A stretch of DNA of 32,000 bases from Candidatus Electrothrix sp. GW3-4 (GTDB lineage: Bacteria; Desulfobacterota; Desulfobulbia; Desulfobulbales; Desulfobulbaceae): positions 360,001 to 392,000 of the forward strand of contig NZ_CP147990.1 in NCBI RefSeq assembly GCF_037902255.1. The letters run 5' to 3'. Below the pieces are notes generated by a model, which saw only the letters and a list, made by a program, of their open reading frames with translations, was not told the DNA's origin and searched no databases. Positions 9,946 through 23,192 of the stretch are shown piece after piece. Position 1 is the first letter of the stretch. Each line of letters begins with the position of its first letter. Made by a program: the position numbers and the translations under genes.

Positions 9946-10501
9946 GGTTCTCTCTTTTCTGTTGTTCAGATGTTCAACATTGTGCTCAGCTGGATGCTCA
10001 GGATAACAAGGAGGTCTCGTCTGTTGCGCTTGCGGCGTGATGAAGAAATGAGCTCGCGGAGCAGTAAACGGCATTCCTCAACGCAAGAGCGATGGGTTAA
10101 CTCTCCCGTTGATCCTGTTATCGTGAACAGCAGCTGGGAAATGGATGGAACAGAAAGGGCTGTTTCAATCCTTCAATAACCTTGATGGGCCTGCAAAGGA
10201 CAGGCGAGATCTCATCTACGGCTTCTTGAAGGCTGAAACTCTGAGAAAGTTGGTTCAGGAAGAGAAGAGGGAAATGCGCCTGCGATTCGTCCACCCGACC
10301 CGGGGCGGCTCCTTGCGGCACATTCAGTAAGAAAAGTATAATAAAGCAGTCATATGTGTTGGTGTGTTCATAAGATGGTTCTGCAAAATAACTCGCACAG
10401 TATACGGGAAATTACAGGTTTCGTCAAAGTTCTTTGAGTGACAGATGGATTTGTCTTGATTCTAGGTGGTCGTTATGTGGCGTAGAGAATACTTGCGGAG
10501 T

Positions 10502-10613
10502 AAACTTTGATGGTTTGGCAAAAAGTCAAAAAACGGCAAATCGATAACGATAACTCAATGAGTTGCGAGGTGTTTTTCGCAAAACTGGACTTTTTACGAA
10601 ACCATCAACTTTC
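10502..10613. repeat. about 110-bp element bounded by imperfect 26-bp inverted repeats (REP/MITE-like)
   Basis: The left arm is aaactttgatggtttggcaaaaagtc (10502-10527). The right arm is gactttttacgaaaccatcaactttc (10588-10613). The inner 19 nt match 17/19, and there is an inner hairpin TTGCGA..TCGCAA. Confidence 0.45.
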
Positions 10614-10888
10614 CCAGTCTGATAGCTAGCTGAAACAGCACTTTTGAGTACAAATCTTACCCCGACCTGTGTTCCGCTAGCTGCGTGGTTTGATTTTGTG
10701 TTGTGATAACGGAAGGGGGGATCTCTTTTAGCTAATTTTATCCTTTTTGTACTTGTATACTTTGCTATATACTATAATATACCTTTCATTGACGGGTATT
10801 ACTGAGTAACTTTCTTTGGTTTCGGTATCCGTTTAGTGAATCAATATAAGCGGGTACTTAACTATGAGCAGTACTCAACTTTAATCAT

Positions 10889-11476
10889 ATGAATGGATCA
10901 TTGGACTTAGTTGGAACACATGGGACAACTGTATCACGCTACGAATCAATAGGTTCAGATGGATTTAAATGTCGTAATTCTGGTTTACGCGGAGCAGGTG
11001 CATATTTTTGGGTTAAATCTGCTTACGCAGAGGAACTTGCTGTAGGGTGGTATTTAAAATGCATTAAAGCAGGGACGTTCAGTAAAAACCCAGATAAAAG
11101 ATGTGTTGTTATAACGGCATCATTTGATGTGTTACCTGAGCAATATCTTGATATTGAATCAGATGAAGTAAAAAGCATATTCCTTAATCTTATCAAACAG
11201 CATAATGCTGAGGATTCACGCGAATGCAGTGAAAAATTTTATGATTTGTTTATTGAGCTAATGGAAAAAGAGCTTGATGTAATCATTAAGCTATATAAAG
11301 TTCGTGCTTATGCGCCAACTAAAGCGTTACCAAACTGCTACCCTACTCAGCTTGCCGGGTCTCCGCTATGTTATGTAGCAAGAGATTCGCAATGCATTCT
11401 GATAAATGGAGCTAAAACGTTGGAAAACGTGGGGGTGAAAAATGAAAAACAGCGAGAAGGTAAAGGCAGCAGCTAA
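10889..11476 (+). CDS. hypothetical protein, candidate toxin with ADP-ribosyltransferase-like (H-Y-E / PARP / DUF3990-type) N-terminal motifs
   Basis: This 195-aa ORF is the first in an AT-rich three-gene operon. The motifs are LVGTHGTT...IGSDGF...GLRGAGAYFW. No Shine-Dalgarno sequence is visible. The fold assignment rests on motif resemblance only. Confidence 0.55.
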   Translation: MNGSLDLVGTHGTTVSRYESIGSDGFKCRNSGLRGAGAYFWVKSAYAEELAVGWYLKCIKAGTFSKNPDKRCVVITASFDVLPEQYLDIESDEVKSIFLNLIKQHNAEDSRECSEKFYDLFIELMEKELDVIIKLYKVRAYAPTKALPNCYPTQLAGSPLCYVARDSQCILINGAKTLENVGVKNEKQREGKGSS

Positions 11477-11726
11477 ACGAGTTTTTGACAAGCTGAGCAA
11501 GATGGACTCTGAGGCTTTTAAAGCTCTTCTGGAAACACGTACCGAAGGGGATGTATATAAAAGTATGAAAGAGCTTTATTCATTCGATGAGTGTGGAAAA
11601 ATAACCAATCGTTATGACAATAAATTGCGTATGATTTCCTCTATACCTTCGGGTTTTACAGTAGATTCGTCTTCTACTAATGATTACTCTGTAACGACTG
11701 AACCATTATGGGCATTAGCAGCATAA
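11442..11726 (+). CDS. hypothetical 94-aa protein, candidate antitoxin with chaperone-dependent tail
   Basis: The start is preceded by GGGGGTGA. The ORF overlaps the upstream ORF by 35 nt and the downstream ORF by 19 nt. It has a Lys/Glu-rich N-terminal half that looks helical and a Ser/Thr-rich C-terminal tail ending EPLWALAA. Confidence 0.55.
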   Translation: MKNSEKVKAAAKRVFDKLSKMDSEAFKALLETRTEGDVYKSMKELYSFDECGKITNRYDNKLRMISSIPSGFTVDSSSTNDYSVTTEPLWALAA

Positions 11727-12199
11727 CATCACAATTTCAGTTCGTATCATACAAGGTTGACAGACTTCAATTTGATATCAAACCAGATCTGGCCTTGTTG
11801 GCTAGTACCAGAAATCTGCCTGTTGACATGTGGGATATTGTTTTCTCTATTAGACAACCATCCTTCTTTTCTCAGGAAAAAAGTTACGTAGCGGGGCTTG
11901 ATATTAAAATTGAACTGAAAGCTGACAATGAAAGATCAGATGGAGAGTCAGAATCTTTAATCTCGCTATCTGCTGGAATAGCTGGCCTTTTTCAAGTGTC
12001 AGATGAGCGGCTTGAAGCTGGACTAGAAGAGAAAATAGTAAAAAATCATTTTCCTGTTTTGCTACTGCCTTATTTGCGTTCTACTATAACGTCATTATTG
12101 GCTAACGCAGGTTTTACTCCTTTCATATTTCCGTTAATTAATTTGCACAAATTAACTGAAGATGCGCTTAAAGACATCGAAGTAAAGGTGATTAACTAG
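11708..12199 (+). CDS. SecB-like chaperone (stand-alone paralogue, TAC-type context)
   Basis: The 163-aa product aligns by eye with E. coli SecB. [35 protein letters not shown] aligns with [49 protein letters not shown] aligns with TFQIQRIYTKDISF. Confidence 0.75.
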   Translation: [163 protein letters not shown]

Positions 12200-12220
12200 T
12201 ACAGCGCGGCGCAAATAATC

Positions 12221-12976
12221 CTATGCTTTTAACGGCAACCCATTAAATGTCCATTTGTATGGTTTTGCCATTGTCGCATTAAAGTAATCAATAAAGTCGA
12301 GCAATTTGCTCCTGAGATCTTTTTTTGATGTAAAATTACCTCTTTTAATGATTTTCTTAGTAAGAATACCAAACCAAATTTCTACTTGATTGAGCCATGA
12401 ACAGTGTTTTGGGGTATAAACAAAGCGAATTGCATGGTCTTTCTTCCTGAGAAATTCGGCTCTGCTTTTCATTGATTTCAAAATGCCTTGTTTCCCTTTG
12501 ACGCCTAAATTATCTTTTATTTCGCATAATTCACTGACCAACTTGACAAGTGATTCCGACTTATGAGTATTGAGCTGATCAGCCACAAAGACCCACTCCC
12601 GAGTTTCCGGATCGCTTAATATAAGGCTTCGAATATGTTCGCAAAAATCATGTTCGTCCCGAGTGTCTCCTATGCTGGGAGAGACGACTTCACCGGTCAC
12701 TACGTCAAAGTTTGCAATGAGCGAGAGTGTTCCGTGCCTGATGTACTCAAACTCAATCCGCTCCGGCTTTCCCGGCTCTATCTTTTTTGTCGGATTTTTC
12801 CTCTCAAGAGCCTGTATTCCGGTATTTTCATCAATACTGATGGTTCGCCTGCCGTTTATTACCGCCTTTCGGGGAGCTTCGTGGTATGTTTCACAGACAT
12901 CTTTCACTTCTAAAACAAACAGTTCTTCATTGTCATGATTGGGATTGAGCCAATACCGACTATGATGAGGTTTCAC
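12221..12976 (-). CDS. IS630-family transposase, DDE catalytic part (orfB)
   Basis: KPHHSRYWLNP follows the usual FLK..D[LV]KPH junction. The DDE residues lie in ISIDENTG, FVADQLNTH and SWLNQVEIWF. Confidence 0.8.
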   Translation of the reverse strand: MKPHHSRYWLNPNHDNEELFVLEVKDVCETYHEAPRKAVINGRRTISIDENTGIQALERKNPTKKIEPGKPERIEFEYIRHGTLSLIANFDVVTGEVVSPSIGDTRDEHDFCEHIRSLILSDPETREWVFVADQLNTHKSESLVKLVSELCEIKDNLGVKGKQGILKSMKSRAEFLRKKDHAIRFVYTPKHCSWLNQVEIWFGILTKKIIKRGNFTSKKDLRSKLLDFIDYFNATMAKPYKWTFNGLPLKA

Positions 12977-13517
12977 ATCGGTTTCTTTTTAAAAATCGGC
13001 CCACTTGACGGTCCGAAATTCCAGAGGTTATCCCACGCTTATTGCATTCATCCGCCAATTCCCTACTGCTCCATTGAGAAATTGGACGACCGCTTTCTTC
13101 GGGATGCTCCAGTGCAACTGCTAAAATCTGACAATATTGTTCTGAAGAATAAGTTACTGGTGCTCCCGGACGCGGATTATCTTTTAAAACTTCTCGAATA
13201 CTTTTTTCCAACTGATTGGCATTTTGGGGATCAGTCTCTATTTGCATTAAAGTATCTTGGTTGGCCAGCCACTTGTATCTCCAATGTTTAACCTTGTCGA
13301 TACTGCAACTCATGACTTTTGCAATCTTTGAGTTCGGTTTTCCTTTCTCAATCTCCAATATTAAAGAAGCCCGACTTACCTCACGAAAATCAGCTGTTGA
13401 TTGTCGAGCTATTTTTGACAAAATTTCTTTCTGTTGTTCGGAAACAGCAATTGATGGCGATTTGGGTGTAGGCATTTTCGAATCCATGTGTTGCAAGATT
13501 GTTGTCAATATACGCAA
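12960..13517 (-). CDS. IS630-family transposase, N-terminal HTH part (orfA)
   Basis: The ORF carries HTH-type segments (SEQQKEILSKIARQ..., SKIAKVMSCSIDKVKHWRYKW, ...ISDRQVGRFLKR). It ends in the T5A5 run where the frame changes to orfB. Confidence 0.8.
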   Translation of the reverse strand: MRILTTILQHMDSKMPTPKSPSIAVSEQQKEILSKIARQSTADFREVSRASLILEIEKGKPNSKIAKVMSCSIDKVKHWRYKWLANQDTLMQIETDPQNANQLEKSIREVLKDNPRPGAPVTYSSEQYCQILAVALEHPEESGRPISQWSSRELADECNKRGITSGISDRQVGRFLKRNRCETSS

Positions 13518-13615
13518 TCAAAAAGGATTCATGATACAATATTATTGTGCAAAAAAGCAGTGTTTAATTTACGCTGAGCTGTACTAGACAGTTATGTAAG
13601 TTTTTCTTACAATTG

Positions 13616-13653
13616 ACCGGGTACGTGCTCAGTACGTAACCCGGTTTTAATTT
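13616..13653 (+). terminator. intrinsic terminator, probably the displaced terminator of the SecB-like operon
   Basis: ACCGGGTACGTG-ctcag-TACGTAACCCGGT forms a 12-bp stem with one bulge, followed by TTTTAATTT. It lies 30 nt beyond the right end of the IS. Confidence 0.65.
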
Positions 13654-13766
13654 GTCCCTGCGGTTGTTTAGATTAAATCCCACCTGTAAATAACCCTCAA
13701 TCAGTAGGTTAGCGTGCGTTTGAGGTCACCTGTCATTCTGCGGTATCTTTTCGTGAGCGGCAGGAG

Positions 13767-15194
13767 TTACCTCTTTTCCAGTTTCACCCGGTTCTGTTTG
13801 GCATTATAGCCGTTCCTTGTGATGATTTCATGGAGGAGATCAACCCGTCCTGCCTCCGGCACCTCTGTGGAGAACTCCACTGTTTTATAATCGTGCAGCT
13901 TCGGATTCAGCTCGCTGCGAAAGGTGATATCGCCGTTGTAACTGCGGCGCACAGCCACCTTGATGGGCTTGCCGGTGTAATTACGGATGCGTTGGCTGAA
14001 TTCCTTATGCTCATCCCAACCTGACACCCGGTTTTTTACATCCAGCTGGAGCTCCCTGCTGCCCACCTTGTGATAAATGCTGCCCCCTTTGACCTGCATC
14101 CAGATATTATCCCGGAATGTCTTGAGCCTGATCAGTTCAAAGACGACCTCAGGATCAGGACCGAGATTGAGTTCAATGCGATCCCCGATGGGGACATATT
14201 TGATTTCACGCGAGGTGAGGAAACTGAGACCGCCTTGTCCATTGGCCCGCAGCGCCTGCACCCGGCCATTGGGCAGAGGGGTGGTACCCAGCCCTGATGC
14301 AGTCTCGTTTTCCAGGAGGTAGAGTCGTACCAACTCGTCACCATATTCCCTGGGGCGGTAGCGGTATTCCACCTTGACGGGCACCTTGGCCGCTTCAAAG
14401 CTGCGGAGCCGTTTGGCCCAACCATTGGGAATGGTTTCAGTGCCTTCAATGGTGTAGATGAAGTATTCTCCCAACCCCTCTTTGGCTACTTCCTTGGGTT
14501 CTGCCAGCGCTTCATCTTCCATGACAGCACCTAACGAGAAGATTGCTGCGGGAGCCTCCATCATTTGTCGGGCGGCTTTTTGTTTATAGCCCCTGAAAGT
14601 CTGCTCCTCAAGTACTTCTACCTTGCCTGGTGGAAGCTGGGCCAGTTCGGCAATCTTCTCCACCAGATTAATGTTGCCGACAACCAGGCGCACCTGGGCA
14701 TCTTCGTATTCTTCACCGGACTGGTTATGTATCCGGACAAAGCCCTCCAAGCTCAGGAAGGTCTCCTCTGGGTTGGCAATGGCGGTGTAGTCGGCAGACC
14801 AGCTGATGCCAGAGGTGAAATAGCTGATCTCAATCTTCGCTTCCTGTTCCTGCTCACTGGCTACATTCCAATAGAGCATCTGTGGTTTATCATGGGGGAA
14901 GGTGGTGTCCAGCACCTGGATGGAGTGTGCCTTGCCTGGGAACTGGAGTTCCACTGAGGTCGGGTCGATCAGGGTGTTGGCCCAGGAGAATTGCAAGGGG
15001 TTGATACCTTTTTTGAAGCTGATCACCCGGGTTTCGCGGACCAGGGTCAGGTCTTCCGAGTTATAGATGGTGAGTTGCACCGCGTTGCGTTTGGGCACGG
15101 TTGAGAGATCCAGGTTGCGTGCTGTTGCCGTGCTGCCGAAGGATATAATAAAGGGCGTAAGAACAAGCAGGGCGAGAAAGAGTATTCTTTTCAT
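13767..15194 (-). CDS. secreted DUF4139/DUF4140-like (MuiA-type) protein
   Basis: I chose the ATG at 15194, giving MKRILFLALLVLTPFIISFG with a signal peptide. The N-terminal pattern VQLTIYNSEDLTLVRETRVISFKKGINPLQFSWANTLIDPTSVELQF is typical of this family. Confidence 0.65.
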   Translation of the reverse strand: MKRILFLALLVLTPFIISFGSTATARNLDLSTVPKRNAVQLTIYNSEDLTLVRETRVISFKKGINPLQFSWANTLIDPTSVELQFPGKAHSIQVLDTTFPHDKPQMLYWNVASEQEQEAKIEISYFTSGISWSADYTAIANPEETFLSLEGFVRIHNQSGEEYEDAQVRLVVGNINLVEKIAELAQLPPGKVEVLEEQTFRGYKQKAARQMMEAPAAIFSLGAVMEDEALAEPKEVAKEGLGEYFIYTIEGTETIPNGWAKRLRSFEAAKVPVKVEYRYRPREYGDELVRLYLLENETASGLGTTPLPNGRVQALRANGQGGLSFLTSREIKYVPIGDRIELNLGPDPEVVFELIRLKTFRDNIWMQVKGGSIYHKVGSRELQLDVKNRVSGWDEHKEFSQRIRNYTGKPIKVAVRRSYNGDITFRSELNPKLHDYKTVEFSTEVPEAGRVDLLHEIITRNGYNAKQNRVKLEKR

Positions 15195-15199
15195 AGCGA

Positions 15200-16402
15200 T
15201 CACCATTCGTTTTTCATCAGGATATGGAGCTTGCATATCTGCTTGTCCGGTTTGCTTTCAGGCTTTTTGGCTGGCAGATCGACATGGAAGAGGAGATGAT
15301 CCGCATCACTTTTTTCTGCGTCCGGCTTGCCCAGGAGGGTGGTCTCCGGGCCCAGTTCACACTCCACATCCCGTTGATTTTGATAGCCCAGTTCCGCCCG
15401 CAGTTCGCGCAAGGTTTCGCCGATATCAAGGGTGACAGGGCTTTCCTTAAAATTCTCTATCTCATATTTCACGATCAGGTCGTAGTCATATAGATTGCCG
15501 TTAATGCGCTTGCGCTCATTACGATCGATAGTACGCTTGACCACAATATCGCGTGCCACTCCGAGATAGAGGGACATTTCGTCATCCTGAGGAGTGAATT
15601 TTCCCCAGTCCTCACCCACAAAAGCGGTACCGCCATGACCGTCCTCCTGAAAGATGCGGGTCTTGCCAAAGGGCAGGGATGCTTTACCCAGGCCGTTGGT
15701 CGTGTCGTTCTTGAGCACATAGTGCATGGGGATCTTGAGTTTTTTCTTGGCCGCATCAAGATAACCGTATTGGGCCAGGTCTGCGGTGTAGGTCTTTCGG
15801 ACCATGACCTCGGGGTACCTTGTTACCAGGAGATCCTTGGTCTCATCAATCCCTACCGAGCGGGTAAGCTGGTCTCCAAAACCAACCGAGATGCTGCTCT
15901 CTTTGTACTCTTCATTGGCTAGGTTTTTCAGGCGGAGGTATTGAGCAAGGTTAAGCTTTTTTTCATCATGGGTGGCGGTTGCCCTATAGTGAAACTCTTT
16001 CTCCAGTCCGTCCAGGATATAGCTGATGCGTACCTGAGCTGAACCGGAATGGGGGGAGGAAACAGCCCATACCAAGCTATTTTCATTGGGGGGATAGCTG
16101 ACCGACAGGACCTTCACTGCCTGGTCGGGAGTCTCTGAGGTATTCAGGACCCGAAAGATCAGGGAGTCAGGAGAAATACGGGTATTGGCCCAGGAAAAAT
16201 CAACCTGGTTGATGCCCTTGACCAGCGGAACAATGCGTTCTTCTTCTACTAAGGTGGCCTGGGGGTGATCAAGCTGGATCTCCACCCGCTCCCGTACCGG
16301 CAGGGTGATGAGTTTGATGCGCGCCCAGGCCTCAAGCGGGACTATGGGGAGAGCGAGGAAAAGTAGGGCGAAGATGACGTGGGGTCTGGATATGTTTATC
16401 AT
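15200..16402 (-). CDS. secreted DUF4139/DUF4140-like protein, paralogue of the downstream gene
   Basis: I chose the ATG at 16402, preceded by AAGGAA. The product starts with the signal peptide MINISRPHVIFALLFLALPIVPLEAWA. It shares the N-terminal pattern VEIQLDHPQATLVEEERIVPLVKGINQVDFSWANTRISPDSLIFRV. Confidence 0.65.
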   Translation of the reverse strand: MINISRPHVIFALLFLALPIVPLEAWARIKLITLPVRERVEIQLDHPQATLVEEERIVPLVKGINQVDFSWANTRISPDSLIFRVLNTSETPDQAVKVLSVSYPPNENSLVWAVSSPHSGSAQVRISYILDGLEKEFHYRATATHDEKKLNLAQYLRLKNLANEEYKESSISVGFGDQLTRSVGIDETKDLLVTRYPEVMVRKTYTADLAQYGYLDAAKKKLKIPMHYVLKNDTTNGLGKASLPFGKTRIFQEDGHGGTAFVGEDWGKFTPQDDEMSLYLGVARDIVVKRTIDRNERKRINGNLYDYDLIVKYEIENFKESPVTLDIGETLRELRAELGYQNQRDVECELGPETTLLGKPDAEKSDADHLLFHVDLPAKKPESKPDKQICKLHILMKNEW

Positions 16403-16513
16403 GTGCCGTTCCTTGGTGTTGGAGCATACCTGCCATCTCCTCGGCAAATATGTTGGTTCGGACTGCTTTACCGTGTTTTATCCTGTCAGCGTATCGACAG
16501 GAATCTTTCTTGA

Positions 16514-17368
16514 TCAGCTTTCATCCTGATTATTTCCTCTGGGCAGGGTCGTCTTCAGGTAATCTTCGTTGGTCTCAAAAATTGGTTCCACCCCATTTTG
16601 CTGGCGCATCAGGGGGATGACCTTGGTACGCACGCCCATACCTCTGGCATCAACATAGCCGTAATCACGGAGAATTTCCATGATTAGAGGATTGCGGGGA
16701 GAGCGCTGGCCTGCAATCATCTTGGCAATGGTCATGGAGTTTTGCAGGGCTCCCGGACTGATGACCTCCAGCCGATCCGCATAGCCACTGACCTCAATAT
16801 CCACGGACCGCGACCAGTCTCGATGGGCCAAGGCATTGATTACCGTCTCCCGGACCGCCTGCATGGGGTAGAAAAACTCTTTGCCCCGGTGCATGTTTTC
16901 GTCGATGTCATCGTCTTCGCAGGAGATAAAAGGAAGGATCGCTGCTGAGAACTGTTCGATTATCCCCTGATCCACCAGTTCCCGGCGTTTATTCGCCATG
17001 CGCCAGCGCCCCACCAGCGGGCCGTCAAGCACGGTGTCCAGACGGGCTTGGTATTCCTTGTCCCCGCCGGTAAAGGCCATGACCCGCAGTCCGGCTTGGG
17101 GCAGAAATCGTCTCGGGCGGATGCCGAAGCAGACCAGCCCGGCAATGGAACAGACCGTATTGCCCAGCCCGTCTTCCGCCATCAGGCCAAGGCCCAGGAG
17201 ACGTTCGATCCACTGCTCGCGGTTGGTCGGTACTTCCGGGTCTTCAATGATTGCAGCGAGGTAGAAGTTGAGTCGGTCCAGATCCAGGGAATCTATCGAG
17301 GTCCCGGCGACAGGCAGGGTTTCAACGTGGAGCATGCCGCCGCTTTCAAGGAGTTCTGCTTTGCGCAT
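16514..17368 (-). CDS. HATPase_c_4-type ATP-binding putative transcriptional regulator (RecG-C-like), lacking the usual N-terminal AlbA_2 domain
   Basis: The motif AVRETVINALAHRDWSRSVDIEVSGYADRLEVISPGAL...RNPLIMEILRDYGYVDARGMGV is present. The 284-aa product starts inside the 3' end of the upstream SGNH gene. Confidence 0.65.
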   Translation of the reverse strand: MRKAELLESGGMLHVETLPVAGTSIDSLDLDRLNFYLAAIIEDPEVPTNREQWIERLLGLGLMAEDGLGNTVCSIAGLVCFGIRPRRFLPQAGLRVMAFTGGDKEYQARLDTVLDGPLVGRWRMANKRRELVDQGIIEQFSAAILPFISCEDDDIDENMHRGKEFFYPMQAVRETVINALAHRDWSRSVDIEVSGYADRLEVISPGALQNSMTIAKMIAGQRSPRNPLIMEILRDYGYVDARGMGVRTKVIPLMRQQNGVEPIFETNEDYLKTTLPRGNNQDES

Positions 17369-19431: not shown

Positions 19432-22119
19432 TCATCCAACCCGTTCGTGAGCTCGGGCACAACGAAAGCCGATATTGTCGTTGCGGTTGTCAGGCTCGTT
19501 CCTGTTCCGGCAGGCGGAACGGCAGTTCCTCGCCTTGTTGTTCCAGGAGCCACCGCGTATAACGCGGTTCTCGTCGGGCTTATCATTCTCCCAAATTTTG
19601 CCGTCTTCAGGTGCTCCATCATAATCCTCATGCCAGGGATCGGCAACCCATTCCCAGACATTTCCTAACATATCATAAAGGCCCCAGTCATTAGCCTGCT
19701 TCAGACCTACCGGATGGGTTCCGGCCCGTTTGTCGTCATACTGCTTTTCTTTCCAGTCCGAGGTATCATAACCGTTATCCAGCTCAAAATTTCTACCACT
19801 GTTGCCTCCATACCAGGCAATATCATCTAAGGCCGGGGCATTACGTTTCCCGATGATTTCAATCTCCCCAGTATACAAGGCTGTACTGCTTCCTGCCCGG
19901 CAGGCATATTCCCATTGGGCTTCGCTGGGTAAGCTGAGGTTAAGTCTTGATATCTGTTGATTAATCTCTTGCACGAACTTTTGACAATCCTCCCAACTTA
20001 CCTGCTCTACCGGGCGGTCAGGGCTTTTAAATTTACTTGGATTCTCTCCCGTAACTGCTTGCCAAAGTGCCTGAGTGACCGGGGTATCAAACAGCCAGAA
20101 GCCCTTGTTGATAGTCACCCAATGTTGCGGTCCTTCGTCATCATAACGTCCCGGTTCATCCTCCGGTGACCCCATCAAAAAACGCCCCGGCGGAATCCAG
20201 CGCATTCGTTGACGCACCGGGCCGTCCTTCCCTTCAACCACAAACTCCGCCCATAGCCCGAAGCGATCCCGGCCCATTGCATCTGCCCAGGAAAAATCAG
20301 GCAAGGTGCAACGGCGCAGGGTGAGCTGTTCGCAGTCGGTTTGTATGCGAAGTTGGTCGGCAGTAGTGGGCAAGGAGAGATGTTCCTGCTGCCCGGAATC
20401 TCTCGCCTGCAAATGATGAATCCTGCTCTGTCCTGCTACAAGATCGTGAGAATCACCATCCACATCCTTTTGCTCAGAAAAAGAATACTGCACAATCCCG
20501 TTGCGGCTCGACAACAGAGCCAAGGGACTGCCGTCCCCTGTCCGGGACAGGGAATGCGGAACAAACTGCAACTCACCCCCTGCCTGCACAGCAATAAACT
20601 TCCTGAGCGGCGCATCCCCACCATCAATCATCCCCGGTTCAAATCCCTCAGGAGGCTGATAGTCCGGCTCATGGCGATGCAGGGCATACACGGTTTGCAC
20701 AAGCTGCTTGCCGATACGAGAATCAGCCCAGAGACGTTGATCAGCCCGCGCTTCAATGCGTTTCAACCACTCCTGATCAGCAGCAACTTCAGCACCCGAG
20801 GCCGCTGCTATTTCAGCACAGAATTCCTGAAAATATTGGCGGGCGTTCTCCCGATCTTGTCCGGGAATACCGTCCAAAGACTCCCTGTCCAGATTCAGCA
20901 GCTCCTCATACCAGATCTCTTCAGGGAGATAGCCCCGCCATTGCCGCAAAATTGCGAGGACCTGTTGTCGTAACGCTTCCGGTTCCTTGCTGATAAAGGC
21001 TTTTCGCAGCTTCTGTGTATATTCAGGATGCAGACTTGCTCCGGCACTGGAGCGGCTGGATATGGCGGGGTGGTTCCAGGTATCAAGCTCAGTTGTGATA
21101 TCCGCATCTCTGCCGAGCAGCCGCCGGACAGCACGTAAAAGGCCCGGCTCAATCCGTATCGCCGGAGAAATCAGGCACAGGAGGCGTTCGCAATGTTTTT
21201 CTCGGTTATCGACAGATTGGGAAATTTTGGTCCAGGGAATGATTTTCCAGACCGAGGTTAACTCCTGCGGAAGATGTGCTCTCCCGAGCGGGCAAAGGGC
21301 CAGAGGACGGCATTCGGCAGCCTGTATTTCCCTGCCGAATGCAAGCCACCATTGCCATAGGCTGCTCTTTCCCTGTATCGATGCTCCGAGATCTCCGGCA
21401 ATAAGTACGGTGCTGCCGGGCGGGGGCAGGCAATACCCTTGCCTGTAATCATCTCTGTTCTGAGGAACTGACAGACCTCTGCCGTCGCGCCAGATTGCCC
21501 GCGATAATCTGTCAGCGGCTATGGTCTGTATAAGCTTTTTGCGGAGATATTGTTGATCCTGCCAGAGGGGGACAAGGCGTATGCTACGGTCTTCTATGAA
21601 CTGGACATGCGGTCCCCAACGACGTCGGCGTTGCCGGGGGAGTTCAGCAAGAAAATGTCCCCGGCATATCCTGCGGACAGCAAGATCAACATCAAGGGCA
21701 TGACCGGTACGTAATGCACTCAGGTGAGAACGGAGGCGGGGGTGGAGTTCGCTCCAGGGTGCAAGCAGGTGCTGCTCAGGTGCTTGCAGCGGACGTTGTG
21801 TCCAGCCCTGATACCCGGTTGAGCCGGTGGAAGATGGGGGAGGAGTTTCCTCCTTTTCTTCGGCAAGGTATTCGTATTCTTCAGGGCGCCAGAAAGGGAT
21901 GTCCGCCAGCGGCTCCTTACTGAATTCGACCTCCTGATTATCTTCAGAATCGGAAAGAGGGGCAGAATACCTTTCTTGCTGAGAGAGGAGAGTTTGCTCC
22001 GGTTGCGGTGCCTGCCAATCGTACTCCAACAGTTCAGCAAGCTCCTGAGCCGCCTCAAGACCTTGACTGCCGAGAATTTCGGCAAGATCGGCTCGACCGC
22101 AAAGCCCTTGGTGTTTCAA
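19432..22119 (-). CDS. large multidomain protein: possible degenerate vWA-like module, helical and beta-rich middle, C-terminal FGE/SUMF1-type domain
   Basis: The 895-aa ORF has a TTG start that overlaps the MoxR stop (cTTGA). VQFIEDRSIRL ... STVLIAGDLG loosely resembles the vWA first strand/MIDAS and the last strand. The C-terminal part of about 275 aa is FGE-type (RMRWIPPGRFLMGSPEDEPGR...RGGSW...IGFRCA). Confidence 0.75.
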   Translation of the reverse strand: MKHQGLCGRADLAEILGSQGLEAAQELAELLEYDWQAPQPEQTLLSQQERYSAPLSDSEDNQEVEFSKEPLADIPFWRPEEYEYLAEEKEETPPPSSTGSTGYQGWTQRPLQAPEQHLLAPWSELHPRLRSHLSALRTGHALDVDLAVRRICRGHFLAELPRQRRRRWGPHVQFIEDRSIRLVPLWQDQQYLRKKLIQTIAADRLSRAIWRDGRGLSVPQNRDDYRQGYCLPPPGSTVLIAGDLGASIQGKSSLWQWWLAFGREIQAAECRPLALCPLGRAHLPQELTSVWKIIPWTKISQSVDNREKHCERLLCLISPAIRIEPGLLRAVRRLLGRDADITTELDTWNHPAISSRSSAGASLHPEYTQKLRKAFISKEPEALRQQVLAILRQWRGYLPEEIWYEELLNLDRESLDGIPGQDRENARQYFQEFCAEIAAASGAEVAADQEWLKRIEARADQRLWADSRIGKQLVQTVYALHRHEPDYQPPEGFEPGMIDGGDAPLRKFIAVQAGGELQFVPHSLSRTGDGSPLALLSSRNGIVQYSFSEQKDVDGDSHDLVAGQSRIHHLQARDSGQQEHLSLPTTADQLRIQTDCEQLTLRRCTLPDFSWADAMGRDRFGLWAEFVVEGKDGPVRQRMRWIPPGRFLMGSPEDEPGRYDDEGPQHWVTINKGFWLFDTPVTQALWQAVTGENPSKFKSPDRPVEQVSWEDCQKFVQEINQQISRLNLSLPSEAQWEYACRAGSSTALYTGEIEIIGKRNAPALDDIAWYGGNSGRNFELDNGYDTSDWKEKQYDDKRAGTHPVGLKQANDWGLYDMLGNVWEWVADPWHEDYDGAPEDGKIWENDKPDENRVIRGGSWNNKARNCRSACRNRNEPDNRNDNIGFRCARAHERVG

Positions 22120-23192
22120 GGGATGGCCTCCAGATTTGCTGCTGTTTCCTCTGTCCTCATATCTTCTGTAGCGGCATCAGGATGCTTTCGCAAGATAAAA
22201 CGTTTGATTTCGGCAAGCAGTTCTTCTTGGGCAGAGTGATCATTCGAGCGTTGTCCGATAACTGCACGGAGTAGGTCCAGGTACTCGGCCTGGCCAGGGA
22301 GAGGGTGCCAATGCTGTTGAGCGGCCTCTTGTCGGTCATCAATCAGGCAGTCAGCAGCTGTTTGCAAAACATTGTTGGAGGTCATTCCCTCAAAATGAGC
22401 CTGACCCCTGCTGATCAGGTGTTCTTTCAGGCGATTGCGTTCCTTGGGAAGCTGTAGATGTAGCACCAGGCAACGTCGGACAAAGGCATCGGGCAGGGCA
22501 CGCTCTTCATTGGTGGTGATAATAACCAGCGGCGGTGTTGATGAGGCCACAACAGGGCGGCCCAGGCCCTGGGGATGAAAGGAATGGGCACCCAAGGCCT
22601 CAAGCAGCCCGTTGGGTACATCTGATTCTGCCTTGTCAATTTCATCAATCAGTACCACGCAGCCATGTTTAGGCTCCCAGCCTTCCGGGTTCTTGGGGAT
22701 GCCGATTCCTGCTTTTTCAGCTCTCCCTTTCGCATCCTCCCAGGCAAAGGCCCACCAGAGCGCACGAGGACGGAGATAATCAGCAGGTGGCAGAAGCTGG
22801 GTGCTGACCTTGCAGGCAGCTGTTTGTTTCTTATCCTCTTTTGCTTCAGAGGAGTTGTCTATGCTCGCTTTAGGTTGGCAGCCGAGTATCTGGGCATCTG
22901 CCAACCGGGCAACCGCATCAAAATGATAGAGGAGATCACGGGATTCAGTTCTGGAGTCCACGGTCTGAGAGATAAAGGCCCGTTGCAGTTCTCCGGCAAC
23001 AGCCTTGGCTAATTGGCTTTTACCTATGCCCGGCTCGCCACGAACCAGAAGAGGGCGTCCTGCTGCCAGGGCAGCATTGACTGCTCGGATCTGATCCCGT
23101 TCAAACTGATGGACTAAGGCGGGCAATCCGGGCTGCGGTACCGAGGATTTGGGTCTGTAAATATGGCCGGGTTGGATTGTAAGAAAGTTCAT
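22116..23192 (-). CDS. MoxR/AAA_5-type AAA+ ATPase
   Basis: The Walker A motif is GEPGIGKS and the Walker B motif is CVVLIDEIDKA, followed by LLEALG and ...IITTNEERALPDAFVRRC. Confidence 0.8.
   Translation of the reverse strand: MNFLTIQPGHIYRPKSSVPQPGLPALVHQFERDQIRAVNAALAAGRPLLVRGEPGIGKSQLAKAVAGELQRAFISQTVDSRTESRDLLYHFDAVARLADAQILGCQPKASIDNSSEAKEDKKQTAACKVSTQLLPPADYLRPRALWWAFAWEDAKGRAEKAGIGIPKNPEGWEPKHGCVVLIDEIDKAESDVPNGLLEALGAHSFHPQGLGRPVVASSTPPLVIITTNEERALPDAFVRRCLVLHLQLPKERNRLKEHLISRGQAHFEGMTSNNVLQTAADCLIDDRQEAAQQHWHPLPGQAEYLDLLRAVIGQRSNDHSAQEELLAEIKRFILRKHPDAATEDMRTEETAANLEAIP

Follow-up and report, generated by a model that had tools for sequence, protein, structure and literature searches.

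A divergent CmdTAC-type toxin–antitoxin–chaperone cassette, probably anti-phage, in a cable bacterium chromosome

Overview of the cassette

A stretch of 32,000 nt of the Candidatus Electrothrix sp. GW3-4 chromosome (contig NZ_CP147990.1, positions 360,001 to 392,000 of the forward strand; hereafter the window, with positions counted from its first letter) contains three overlapping open reading frames (ORFs) that very probably form a divergent CmdTAC-type module. The module most probably acts against phages by abortive infection, and it is located in a strain-variable insertion of the chromosome. CmdTAC is a toxin–antitoxin–chaperone (TAC) system in which the toxin is an ADP-ribosyltransferase (ART). 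The cassette consists of the following genes.

ORF1, 10889-11476, plus strand: 195 aa, predicted CmdT-like ADP-ribosyltransferase toxin
ORF2, 11442-11726, plus strand: 94 aa, predicted CmdA-like antitoxin
ORF3, 11708-12199, plus strand: 163 aa, CmdC-like chaperone of the SecB family (SecB-TA type)

The assignment is based on the homology of the three components, the ART fold of ORF1 with its conserved histidine and tyrosine, the gene order with overlapping reading frames, and the Ala-Ala tails of the antitoxins. An earlier reading of the window, made from the sequence alone, had described the cassette as a candidate new TAC type. The functional side of that proposal, namely a TAC system with an ART-fold toxin, an antitoxin with an addiction tail and a SecB-like chaperone, is supported by our analysis. 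The claim of novelty did not survive: an ART toxin held by a SecB-dependent antitoxin is the combination already known as CmdTAC and described in 2022–2024 (PMC9519451; PMC11618068; bioRxiv 10.1101/2024.02.24.581848), and the cassette is not a new TAC type. The TAC families enumerated in that reading (HigBA, MqsRA and HicAB) agree with the literature before 2022 and omit CmdTAC.

The three frames are on the plus strand, and their coordinates and both overlaps were given correctly in the sequence-only reading. ORF1 and ORF2 share 35 nt (11442-11476), ORF2 and ORF3 share 19 nt (11708-11726), and GGGGGTGA precedes ORF2. The description of the surroundings as an AT-rich islet in a GC-richer, minus-strand segment was also accurate. 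The GC content of the islet (approximately 10,500-13,500) is 0.36-0.44, compared to 0.48-0.59 in adjacent windows, and the genes flanking the cassette are on the minus strand. These genes have ordinary chromosomal functions; they encode transglutaminase/rhodanese, 4Fe-4S, solute-binding, histidine kinase and FGE-sulfatase-domain proteins. ORF1–ORF3 are not chance reading frames, because at least 334 clusters of ORF1 homologs exist and the overlapping three-gene layout recurs in other genomes.

Characterised CmdTAC systems

The founding system was found in 2022 in E. coli ECOR22 under the name PD-T4-9 (PMC9519451) and was later renamed CmdTAC. Its toxin CmdT requires Y41; acting on single-stranded RNA, it modifies the adenine of GA dinucleotides at N6, and translation is blocked. 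The antitoxin CmdA consists of a pair of N-terminal helices and a long unstructured C-terminal part with a terminal LAA recognised by ClpXP. CmdA is stabilised by CmdC, a SecB-like tetramer, which newly made capsid protein of T4 titrates away (PMC11618068). The second validated system is that of E. coli O112ab:H26, whose CmdT ADP-ribosylates mRNA in an NAD+-dependent manner. ClpXP-dependent triggering requires the two alanines at the end of the O112ab:H26 CmdA (121 aa), and the spaced aromatic residues of chaperone-addiction (ChAD) tails slot into pockets of the chaperone (bioRxiv 10.1101/2024.02.24.581848). Both systems provide strong anti-phage protection by abortive infection. The CmdTAC authors call a system when DefenseFinder hidden Markov models (HMMs) of CmdT and CmdC match within two genes; CmdA is excluded from the rule as too variable.

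We used both systems as references. The ECOR22-type locus (L005) was located via the cmdT-cmdA junction rebuilt from the published primers, and its proteins of 192, 77 and 129 aa match the PADLOC models PD-T4-9_A, PD-T4-9_B and PD-T4-9_C with E-values of 4e-97, 3e-38 and 7e-61, respectively. DNA fragments from Dataset S1 of the preprint by Mets et al. led to the O112ab:H26 locus (L021), which carries WP_097333619.1, the accession listed by the authors. Another candidate for the O112ab-type CmdT, P0162, was rejected, as it belongs to a different P2-hotspot system with an 81-aa CmdA.

The toxin ORF1

ORF1 alone produces nothing meaningful in Pfam, NCBIfam or PADLOC, and a phmmer search against PDB sequences gave no match. 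Among the relatives suggested for it earlier, DUF3990 is not borne out, as ORF1 has no Pfam match at E ≤ 1. The family was recovered by an exhaustive HMMER search over 1.84 billion cluster representatives (clusters at 50% identity), which yielded 334 clusters at E ≤ 1e-3, of which 186 reach E ≤ 1e-10; a word-indexed homolog search gave two relatives with ORF1 alone and five with the family alignment. Among the 150 matches listed, nearly all are 170–210 aa long and are matched along most of their length.

In the alignment of 132 sequences, H11, T13, Y39 and W41 are invariant, and G9, G12, G35, G37, F40, E126, P143, G157 and P159 are nearly so. The four invariant residues are those of the N-terminal motifs that the sequence-only reading had picked out by eye. 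Position 126 is occupied by glutamate in 122 of the 132 ORF1-family sequences and in 38 of 119 ECOR22-type sequences. Position 166 is less uniform (72 D, 23 N and 9 E among the 132 sequences); D166 of ORF1 aligns with the K-D of the O112ab CmdT and with the R-Q-Q of the ECOR22 type. Either E126 or D166 is a candidate third catalytic residue.

The AlphaFold2 model of ORF1 built from the same alignment has a mean predicted local distance difference test score (pLDDT) of 95.0 and a predicted template modelling score (pTM) of 0.89. The best Foldseek matches in PDB include NatT (8qnl, E 2.5e-4) and MbcT (6fkg, E 3.6e-4). The other matches are PARP1/2/4, tankyrase, PARP14/15 and cholix toxin, so that the list consists almost exclusively of the ART superfamily, and among viral models ORF1 matches phage ART-PolyVal-like and PARP-catalytic-domain proteins. 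The TM-scores are modest (0.40-0.45). The model thus supports an ART fold with the H and Y positions conserved, as proposed from the motifs alone. The sole non-ART match near the top of the list is a chain of the cyanophage A4 pre-ejectosome (9k3a_B, E 3.2e-4).

Relationship of ORF1 to the validated CmdT toxins

The similarity of ORF1 to the ECOR22-type CmdT is detected only at the profile–profile level. A BLASTP comparison is not significant, the best high-scoring segment pair having E 0.13 over the G-YFW motif. The alignment of the ORF1 family with the 119-sequence ECOR22-type family by hhalign gives a probability of 96.9% and E 2e-10 over 78 N-terminal columns, and in permissive or global mode the families align colinearly (1-183 versus 1-190; 97.2-97.4%, E ~5e-11). 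In the profile alignment, H11 of ORF1 corresponds to the CmdT histidine, and Y39 to the second tyrosine of the CmdT GYYFW motif. We infer that this tyrosine is the catalytic Y41, because the start given in RefSeq is offset by two N-terminal residues from the one that the cloning primers imply.

The O112ab:H26 toxin is closer. ORF1 aligns with WP_097333619.1 by BLASTP with E 2e-9 and 26% identity over 172 columns, and the two proteins share the motifs GxHGT, GxGAYF[WF], EQYLD[LI] and GxPxC...V[RK]D. A multiple alignment reduces the motifs common to ORF1, O112ab and ECOR22-type toxins to GxH, GxYF[WF] and [EQ]xLD[LI]; the C-terminal GxPxC...V[RK]D is common to ORF1 and the O112ab CmdT, whereas the ECOR22 type has TRQQxC at this place. 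Each family is scored far higher by its own HMM: 137-219 bits for the ORF1 family, compared with at most 18 bits from the ECOR22-type HMM, and 157-249 bits for the ECOR22 type, compared with at most 24 bits from the ORF1-family HMM. The O112ab CmdT receives 38.7 bits from the ORF1-family HMM, which matches it only across approximately 100 N-terminal residues, and 19.3 bits from the ECOR22-type HMM. Judged by these comparisons, ORF1 is a CmdT homolog in a subfamily distinct from the founding one, and the O112ab toxin lies between the two families, nearer to the side of ORF1.

The PADLOC toxin model hardly recognises the O112ab CmdT either (PD-T4-9_A, 14.5 bits, E 0.007), while the chaperone of this system matches PD-T4-9_C at 3.7e-35. 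Since a validated toxin barely registers, detection by toxin HMMs under-calls even experimentally proven CmdTAC systems, and recognition by PD-T4-9_A is narrower than the named CmdT family.

The chaperone ORF3

The similarity of ORF3 to SecB, first noticed by eye, is upheld by the Pfam SecB model (29.3 bits at a cut-off of 26, E 9e-7, residues 68-152). Seven NCBIfam SecB models also match ORF3, all far under their equivalog cut-offs (the best with 28.5 bits versus 143; TIGR00809 with 23.5 versus 102.8). Given these low scores, ORF3 is a SecB paralog and not the housekeeping export chaperone; the housekeeping role was rejected also in view of the position of the gene in a three-gene cassette within an AT-rich islet. 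Both PADLOC models of CmdC (PD-T4-9_C) match ORF3 with E-values of 1.2e-7 and 9.8e-7. BLASTP aligns ORF3 with the ECOR22 CmdC at E between 3e-6 and 2e-7 and with the O112ab:H26 CmdC at E 5e-6, and residues 2-162 of ORF3 align with residues 4-166 of a 167-aa homolog. A phmmer search of ORF3 against PDB sequences found no match. A tblastn search of ORF3 against plasmids found none at E ≤ 0.01, although CmdC-like genes adjoin ORF1 homologs there.

The antitoxin ORF2

No helix-turn-helix (HTH) or other domain was found in ORF2 with Pfam, NCBIfam or PADLOC, in agreement with the initial description. By BLASTP, ORF2 is similar to the positional homologs in the closest loci (6e-24, 1e-8 and 3e-7). 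The protein has a predicted helical N-terminal part (approximately residues 3-65) and a Ser/Thr-rich tail (approximately residues 66-94) that contains the terminal LAA; its spaced aromatic residues are Y58, F72, Y82 and W90. The single-sequence AlphaFold2 model (pLDDT 51.7) has helices in residues 3-65 followed by coil, with the lowest pLDDT in residues 66-89, and is weakly consistent with a layout of a helical head and a disordered tail. The helical N-terminus proposed earlier is seen in this low-confidence model, and the proposed tail, with its spaced aromatics and LAA end, looks ChAD-like. By analogy with the E. coli antitoxins, it is a putative ChAD element plus a ClpX degron.

We compared 15 antitoxin tails, from the window, 12 ORF1-family loci and two E. 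coli systems. Eleven end with Ala-Ala (LAA in five, AAA in two, and IAA, WAA, YAA and QAA in one each), the remaining four end with AAS, LAS, WVA and RVC, and all 15 have several aromatic residues within the last 40 positions. In one metagenomic locus (L007:1211-1507), a 98-aa antitoxin gene homologous to ORF2, whose product ends with QAAAA, had not been called by the source gene finder and was recovered by translation; this agrees with the remark of the CmdTAC authors that CmdA is often unannotated.

The cassette in other genomes

Twelve other ORF1-family loci were examined:

seven on metagenomic contigs: L006, L007, L009, L011, L012, L013 and L015
four on plasmids: Acinetobacter baumannii, A. 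indicus, Candidatus Thiodictyon syntrophicum and Polaromonas
one in a phage: Pseudomonas phage Turba

The middle gene is small (93-150 aa) in all 12 loci, and the third gene matches PD-T4-9_C in ten (E 2e-36 to 1e-6). ORF1 homologs are therefore linked to SecB-like genes, as the TAC interpretation predicted; a finding that they never are would have spoken against it. In L006, the contig end cuts off the locus. The lone exception to the pattern is L012 (743-1501): the product of its third gene (142 aa) matches neither SecB nor PD-T4-9_C and hits DndG only weakly (E 2e-4), and its middle protein ends with RVC instead of Ala-Ala. In this locus, another gene may have taken the place of the chaperone.

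Both the toxin–antitoxin and the antitoxin–chaperone overlaps recur among the closest relatives of the cassette. The relatives of the three proteins rank in a similar order, which fits inheritance of the cassette as a unit. On the A. indicus plasmid, the cassette is adjacent to a RelE/ParE pair and to a gene annotated as an 'abortive infection family protein', and on the Polaromonas plasmid to a type ISP restriction-modification enzyme. The E. coli CmdTAC loci are in prophage regions, one in a P2-like hotspot and the other at a site adjoining an integrase.

In the Turba genome (OR683412.1; L016:1289-1867), the tblastn match of ORF1 starts 21 nt upstream of the annotated start of the coding sequence at 1310, and a protein translated from the annotated start lacks GxHGT at its aligned N-terminus. 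The start codon of the record probably lies too far downstream.

Comparison with known toxin–antitoxin systems

The toxin–antitoxin–chaperone gene order proposed for the cassette is the order of both E. coli CmdTAC loci. Like the O112ab:H26 genes, the three frames overlap or abut; the O112ab:H26 antitoxin ends with QAA, and its chaperone matches PD-T4-9_C, as ORF3 does. The two systems differ in protein sizes, with a CmdA of 121 aa versus 94 aa for ORF2, without detectable similarity, and a CmdC of 128 aa versus 163 aa for ORF3. They also differ in location, the O112ab:H26 system being prophage-borne in an enterobacterium and the present one residing in a chromosomal islet of a cable bacterium. 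With the ECOR22 system, the cassette shares the gene order, the size classes (192/77/129 versus 195/94/163 aa), an ART toxin with alignable conserved H and Y, a SecB-like chaperone and, judging from a low-confidence model of ORF2, an antitoxin in which N-terminal helices are followed by a disordered tail that ends with LAA. The toxins of these two systems are related only through their profiles, and the PADLOC A and B models pass over ORF1 and ORF2.

Classical TAC systems (M. tuberculosis HigBA1-Rv1957, MqsRAC, the HicAB type and E. coli NT1F31 HigBAC) likewise have a SecB-like third gene and an aromatic addiction tail. However, their toxins are RNases (HigB, MqsR, HicA) and their antitoxins have a DNA-binding domain, whereas ORF1 has a predicted ART fold and ORF2 has no recognisable domain. 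Membership of the cassette in this group was rejected, as ORF1 and ORF2 have no HigB, MqsR, HicA or HTH match in Pfam or NCBIfam at E ≤ 1 and ORF1 is ART-fold. ART-superfamily toxins are also present in the toxin–antitoxin modules DarTG and RES-Xre (MbcTA, NatRT). In contrast to the cassette, these are two-gene systems without a chaperone, in which the antitoxin is the macrodomain enzyme DarG or an Xre-type protein. ORF1 differs further from the RES toxins in its conserved H-Y, in place of R-E-S, and it has no Pfam DarT or RES match.

Proposed mechanism

On the strength of its homology to the ECOR22 and O112ab:H26 systems, we propose a similar mechanism for the cassette; its enzymatic activity, RNA target, dependence on ClpXP, phage trigger and defence phenotype are all inferred by this analogy. 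ORF1 would be an NAD+-dependent ADP-ribosyltransferase of the H-Y-[E/D/Q] clade, active once freed. The helical N-terminal part of ORF2 would bind and neutralise ORF1, keeping it folded and inactive, while the disordered aromatic tail with its LAA end would be a ClpXP substrate unless held by the chaperone. ORF3, a predicted SecB-family tetramer, would hold this tail and protect it from ClpXP. Upon infection, a newly made phage structural protein could compete for ORF3, ORF2 would be degraded, and the released ORF1 would modify a nucleic acid, most likely single-stranded mRNA, leading to translation shutdown and aborted infection.

Evidence against the assignment and alternative interpretations

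Several observations weigh against the assignment of the cassette to CmdTAC. The HMM cross-scores between the ORF1 and ECOR22-type families do not exceed 24 bits. PD-T4-9_A and PD-T4-9_B give no match to ORF1 or ORF2 at E ≤ 1, and in the ORF1 family PD-T4-9_A touches only four of the 132 members (best E 0.004); this criterion is, however, narrower than the named family, as the validated O112ab CmdT nearly fails it too. The C-terminal motifs of the toxins differ, with E126 and GxPxCYVVRD in the ORF1 family versus AIKAQD and TRQQxCVFE in the ECOR22 type. Because of this difference, and with the third catalytic residue being only a candidate, the substrate specificity of the ORF1 subfamily could differ from that of CmdT. 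Experimental characterisation near this subfamily is limited to the borderline O112ab CmdT. The top two bacterial-toxin fold matches of ORF1, NatT and MbcT, are NAD+-degrading enzymes and not transferases. ORF2 has no BLASTP-detectable similarity to either E. coli CmdA, as would be expected from the authors' remark that high variability and frequent lack of annotation make CmdA unsuitable for calling, and the structural model of ORF2 is of low confidence. Finally, an IS630-family element parts the operon from its likely terminator, and a scan for consensus sigma-70 promoters upstream of ORF1 found nothing convincing; a TATAAT at 10773-10778, seen by eye, has no good -35 element.

Some of these points would also be explained if the toxin–antitoxin–chaperone logic were the same and the activity of ORF1 were another one, directed at a different RNA sequence or class, at DNA or at protein, or consuming NAD+ as MbcT and NatT do. 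The order of the PDB fold matches, the C-terminal residues that differ from the ECOR22-type CmdT, including the family-specific and nearly invariant E126, and the sharp separation of the two families by HMM scores all agree with such a difference. We nevertheless regard it as unlikely, since ORF1 has no RES domain by Pfam (no match at E ≤ 1), its invariant residues are the H and Y of the H-Y-E clade instead of R-E-S, the TM-scores of NatT and MbcT (0.42-0.43) are no better than those of PARP2 or cholix toxin, and the nearest characterised relative by sequence is the O112ab CmdT, an mRNA ADP-ribosyltransferase. The narrower reading of ORF1 as a RES-type NADase was rejected as the primary one: the Pfam result and the invariant H, T, Y and W leave a likeness at the level of the fold only.

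We further speculate, as a possible if doubtful extension of the CmdTAC assignment, that the ORF1 subfamily forms a branch of chaperone-controlled ARTs with a function of its own, a substrate or sequence specificity unlike GA in single-stranded RNA, and a chaperone tuned to structural proteins of phages of cable bacteria and other environmental hosts. If so, the branch would be a defence family in its own right, widespread and hitherto uncounted.

Classical toxin–antitoxin modules often stabilise mobile elements. The cassette might similarly be mainly an addiction or stabilisation module of its mobile carrier, be it a plasmid, a prophage or a genomic islet, and not a phage defence; its relatives are found on small plasmids, and the window copy is in an AT-rich, strain-variable insertion associated with an insertion sequence (IS). 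This appears quite improbable, given that both characterised CmdTAC systems protect strongly against phages via abortive infection and that related loci adjoin defence genes of the Abi family and the type ISP restriction-modification system; the two roles are not mutually exclusive.

At least two sequence families, sharply separated and bridged by the validated O112ab:H26 toxin, go under the name CmdT. Because the PADLOC toxin models miss one of these families, CmdTAC-type systems are probably under-counted, and an HMM built from the 132-sequence alignment could recover the missed ones. The C-terminal differences between the subfamilies provide a natural comparison for the determinants of RNA specificity. 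The analysis also places a CmdTAC-type module in a cable bacterium.

Genomic context: a strain-variable insertion with an IS630 element

The proteins encoded around the cassette share 80-89% identity with their counterparts in Candidatus Electrothrix laxa (OW818652.1; L022) and in an Electrothrix metagenome-assembled genome (MAG; L023); for a flanking 534-aa protein, the identity is 88% with E. laxa and 87% with the MAG, which points to a cable bacterium as the source of the window. In L023, the solute-binding-protein gene and the homolog of the window gene 16514-17368 are approximately 560 nt apart. In the window, positions 10,075-16,513 lie between these two genes, that is, approximately 6.4 kb of extra DNA. 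ORF1, ORF2 and ORF3 are in none of the 80 related loci retrieved, and the retrieved region of E. laxa has no homologs of the genes of the extra DNA (10075-16513). Given the short distance in L023 and the 80 loci without ORF1–ORF3, comparison of these sequences places the cassette within a strain-variable insertion. The following features lie downstream of the cassette.

IS630-family insertion sequence, 12196-13587, minus strand: 35-nt terminal inverted repeats at 12196-12230 and 13553-13587, 77% complementary
IS630 transposase in two overlapping ORFs, 12960-13517 and 12221-12976, minus strand: NCBIfam transpos_IS630 at 3.9e-27 and 2.2e-12; Pfam DDE_3 and HTH_32
GC-rich hairpin followed by UUUUAAUUU, 13615-13654, plus strand: 28 nt past the right end of IS630
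DUF4139 protein, 13767-15236, minus strand: within the extra ~6.4 kb
415-aa protein, 15200-16447, minus strand: no Pfam match; within the extra ~6.4 kb

The genes of the DUF4139 protein and of the 415-aa protein have a native-like GC content of about 0.52-0.54, and the extra DNA in 10075-16513 may therefore stem from two or more insertions. Searches for tRNAs across the window and for Rfam families across the islet were both negative.

Insertion of IS630 elements duplicates their TA target. The element of the window is inserted exactly in the TA of the TAG stop codon of ORF3, with CTAG at both junctions, and the stop of ORF3 is kept both in the present sequence and in the reconstructed sequence before insertion. 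IS630 is not a part of the system but sets its present 3' boundary. The hairpin at 13615-13654 has a folding energy of -21.2 kcal/mol (z -4.83), with none of 200 shuffled sequences as stable, and one unpaired base in the stem; it was missed by a simple scan for consensus terminators. It is probably the original intrinsic terminator of the operon, displaced by 1.39 kb by the insertion of IS630.

That the cassette is a decaying, non-functional remnant disrupted by IS630, as its abutment on ORF3, the separation of ORF3 from the probable terminator and the negative promoter scan might suggest, is very improbable, since the element landed in the stop codon of ORF3 and left it intact, the three ORFs are intact, with lengths that match those of their relatives, ORF1 keeps every invariant residue of its family, and two separate sequencing runs assembled to the identical ORF1 protein sequence.

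At the left edge of the islet, approximately 280 nt upstream of ORF1, there is an inverted repeat (10507-10608, plus strand) with 21-nt arms that are 90% complementary and 60 nt apart (-33 kcal/mol, z -4.6). It has no Rfam match and could be a mobile-element remnant or a terminator. Farther along the window, a gene for an 895-aa protein with a C-terminal FGE-sulfatase domain (19432-22119, minus strand) is directly preceded by that of a 358-aa AAA_5/AAA ATPase (22116-23192, minus strand), with an overlap of 4 nt.

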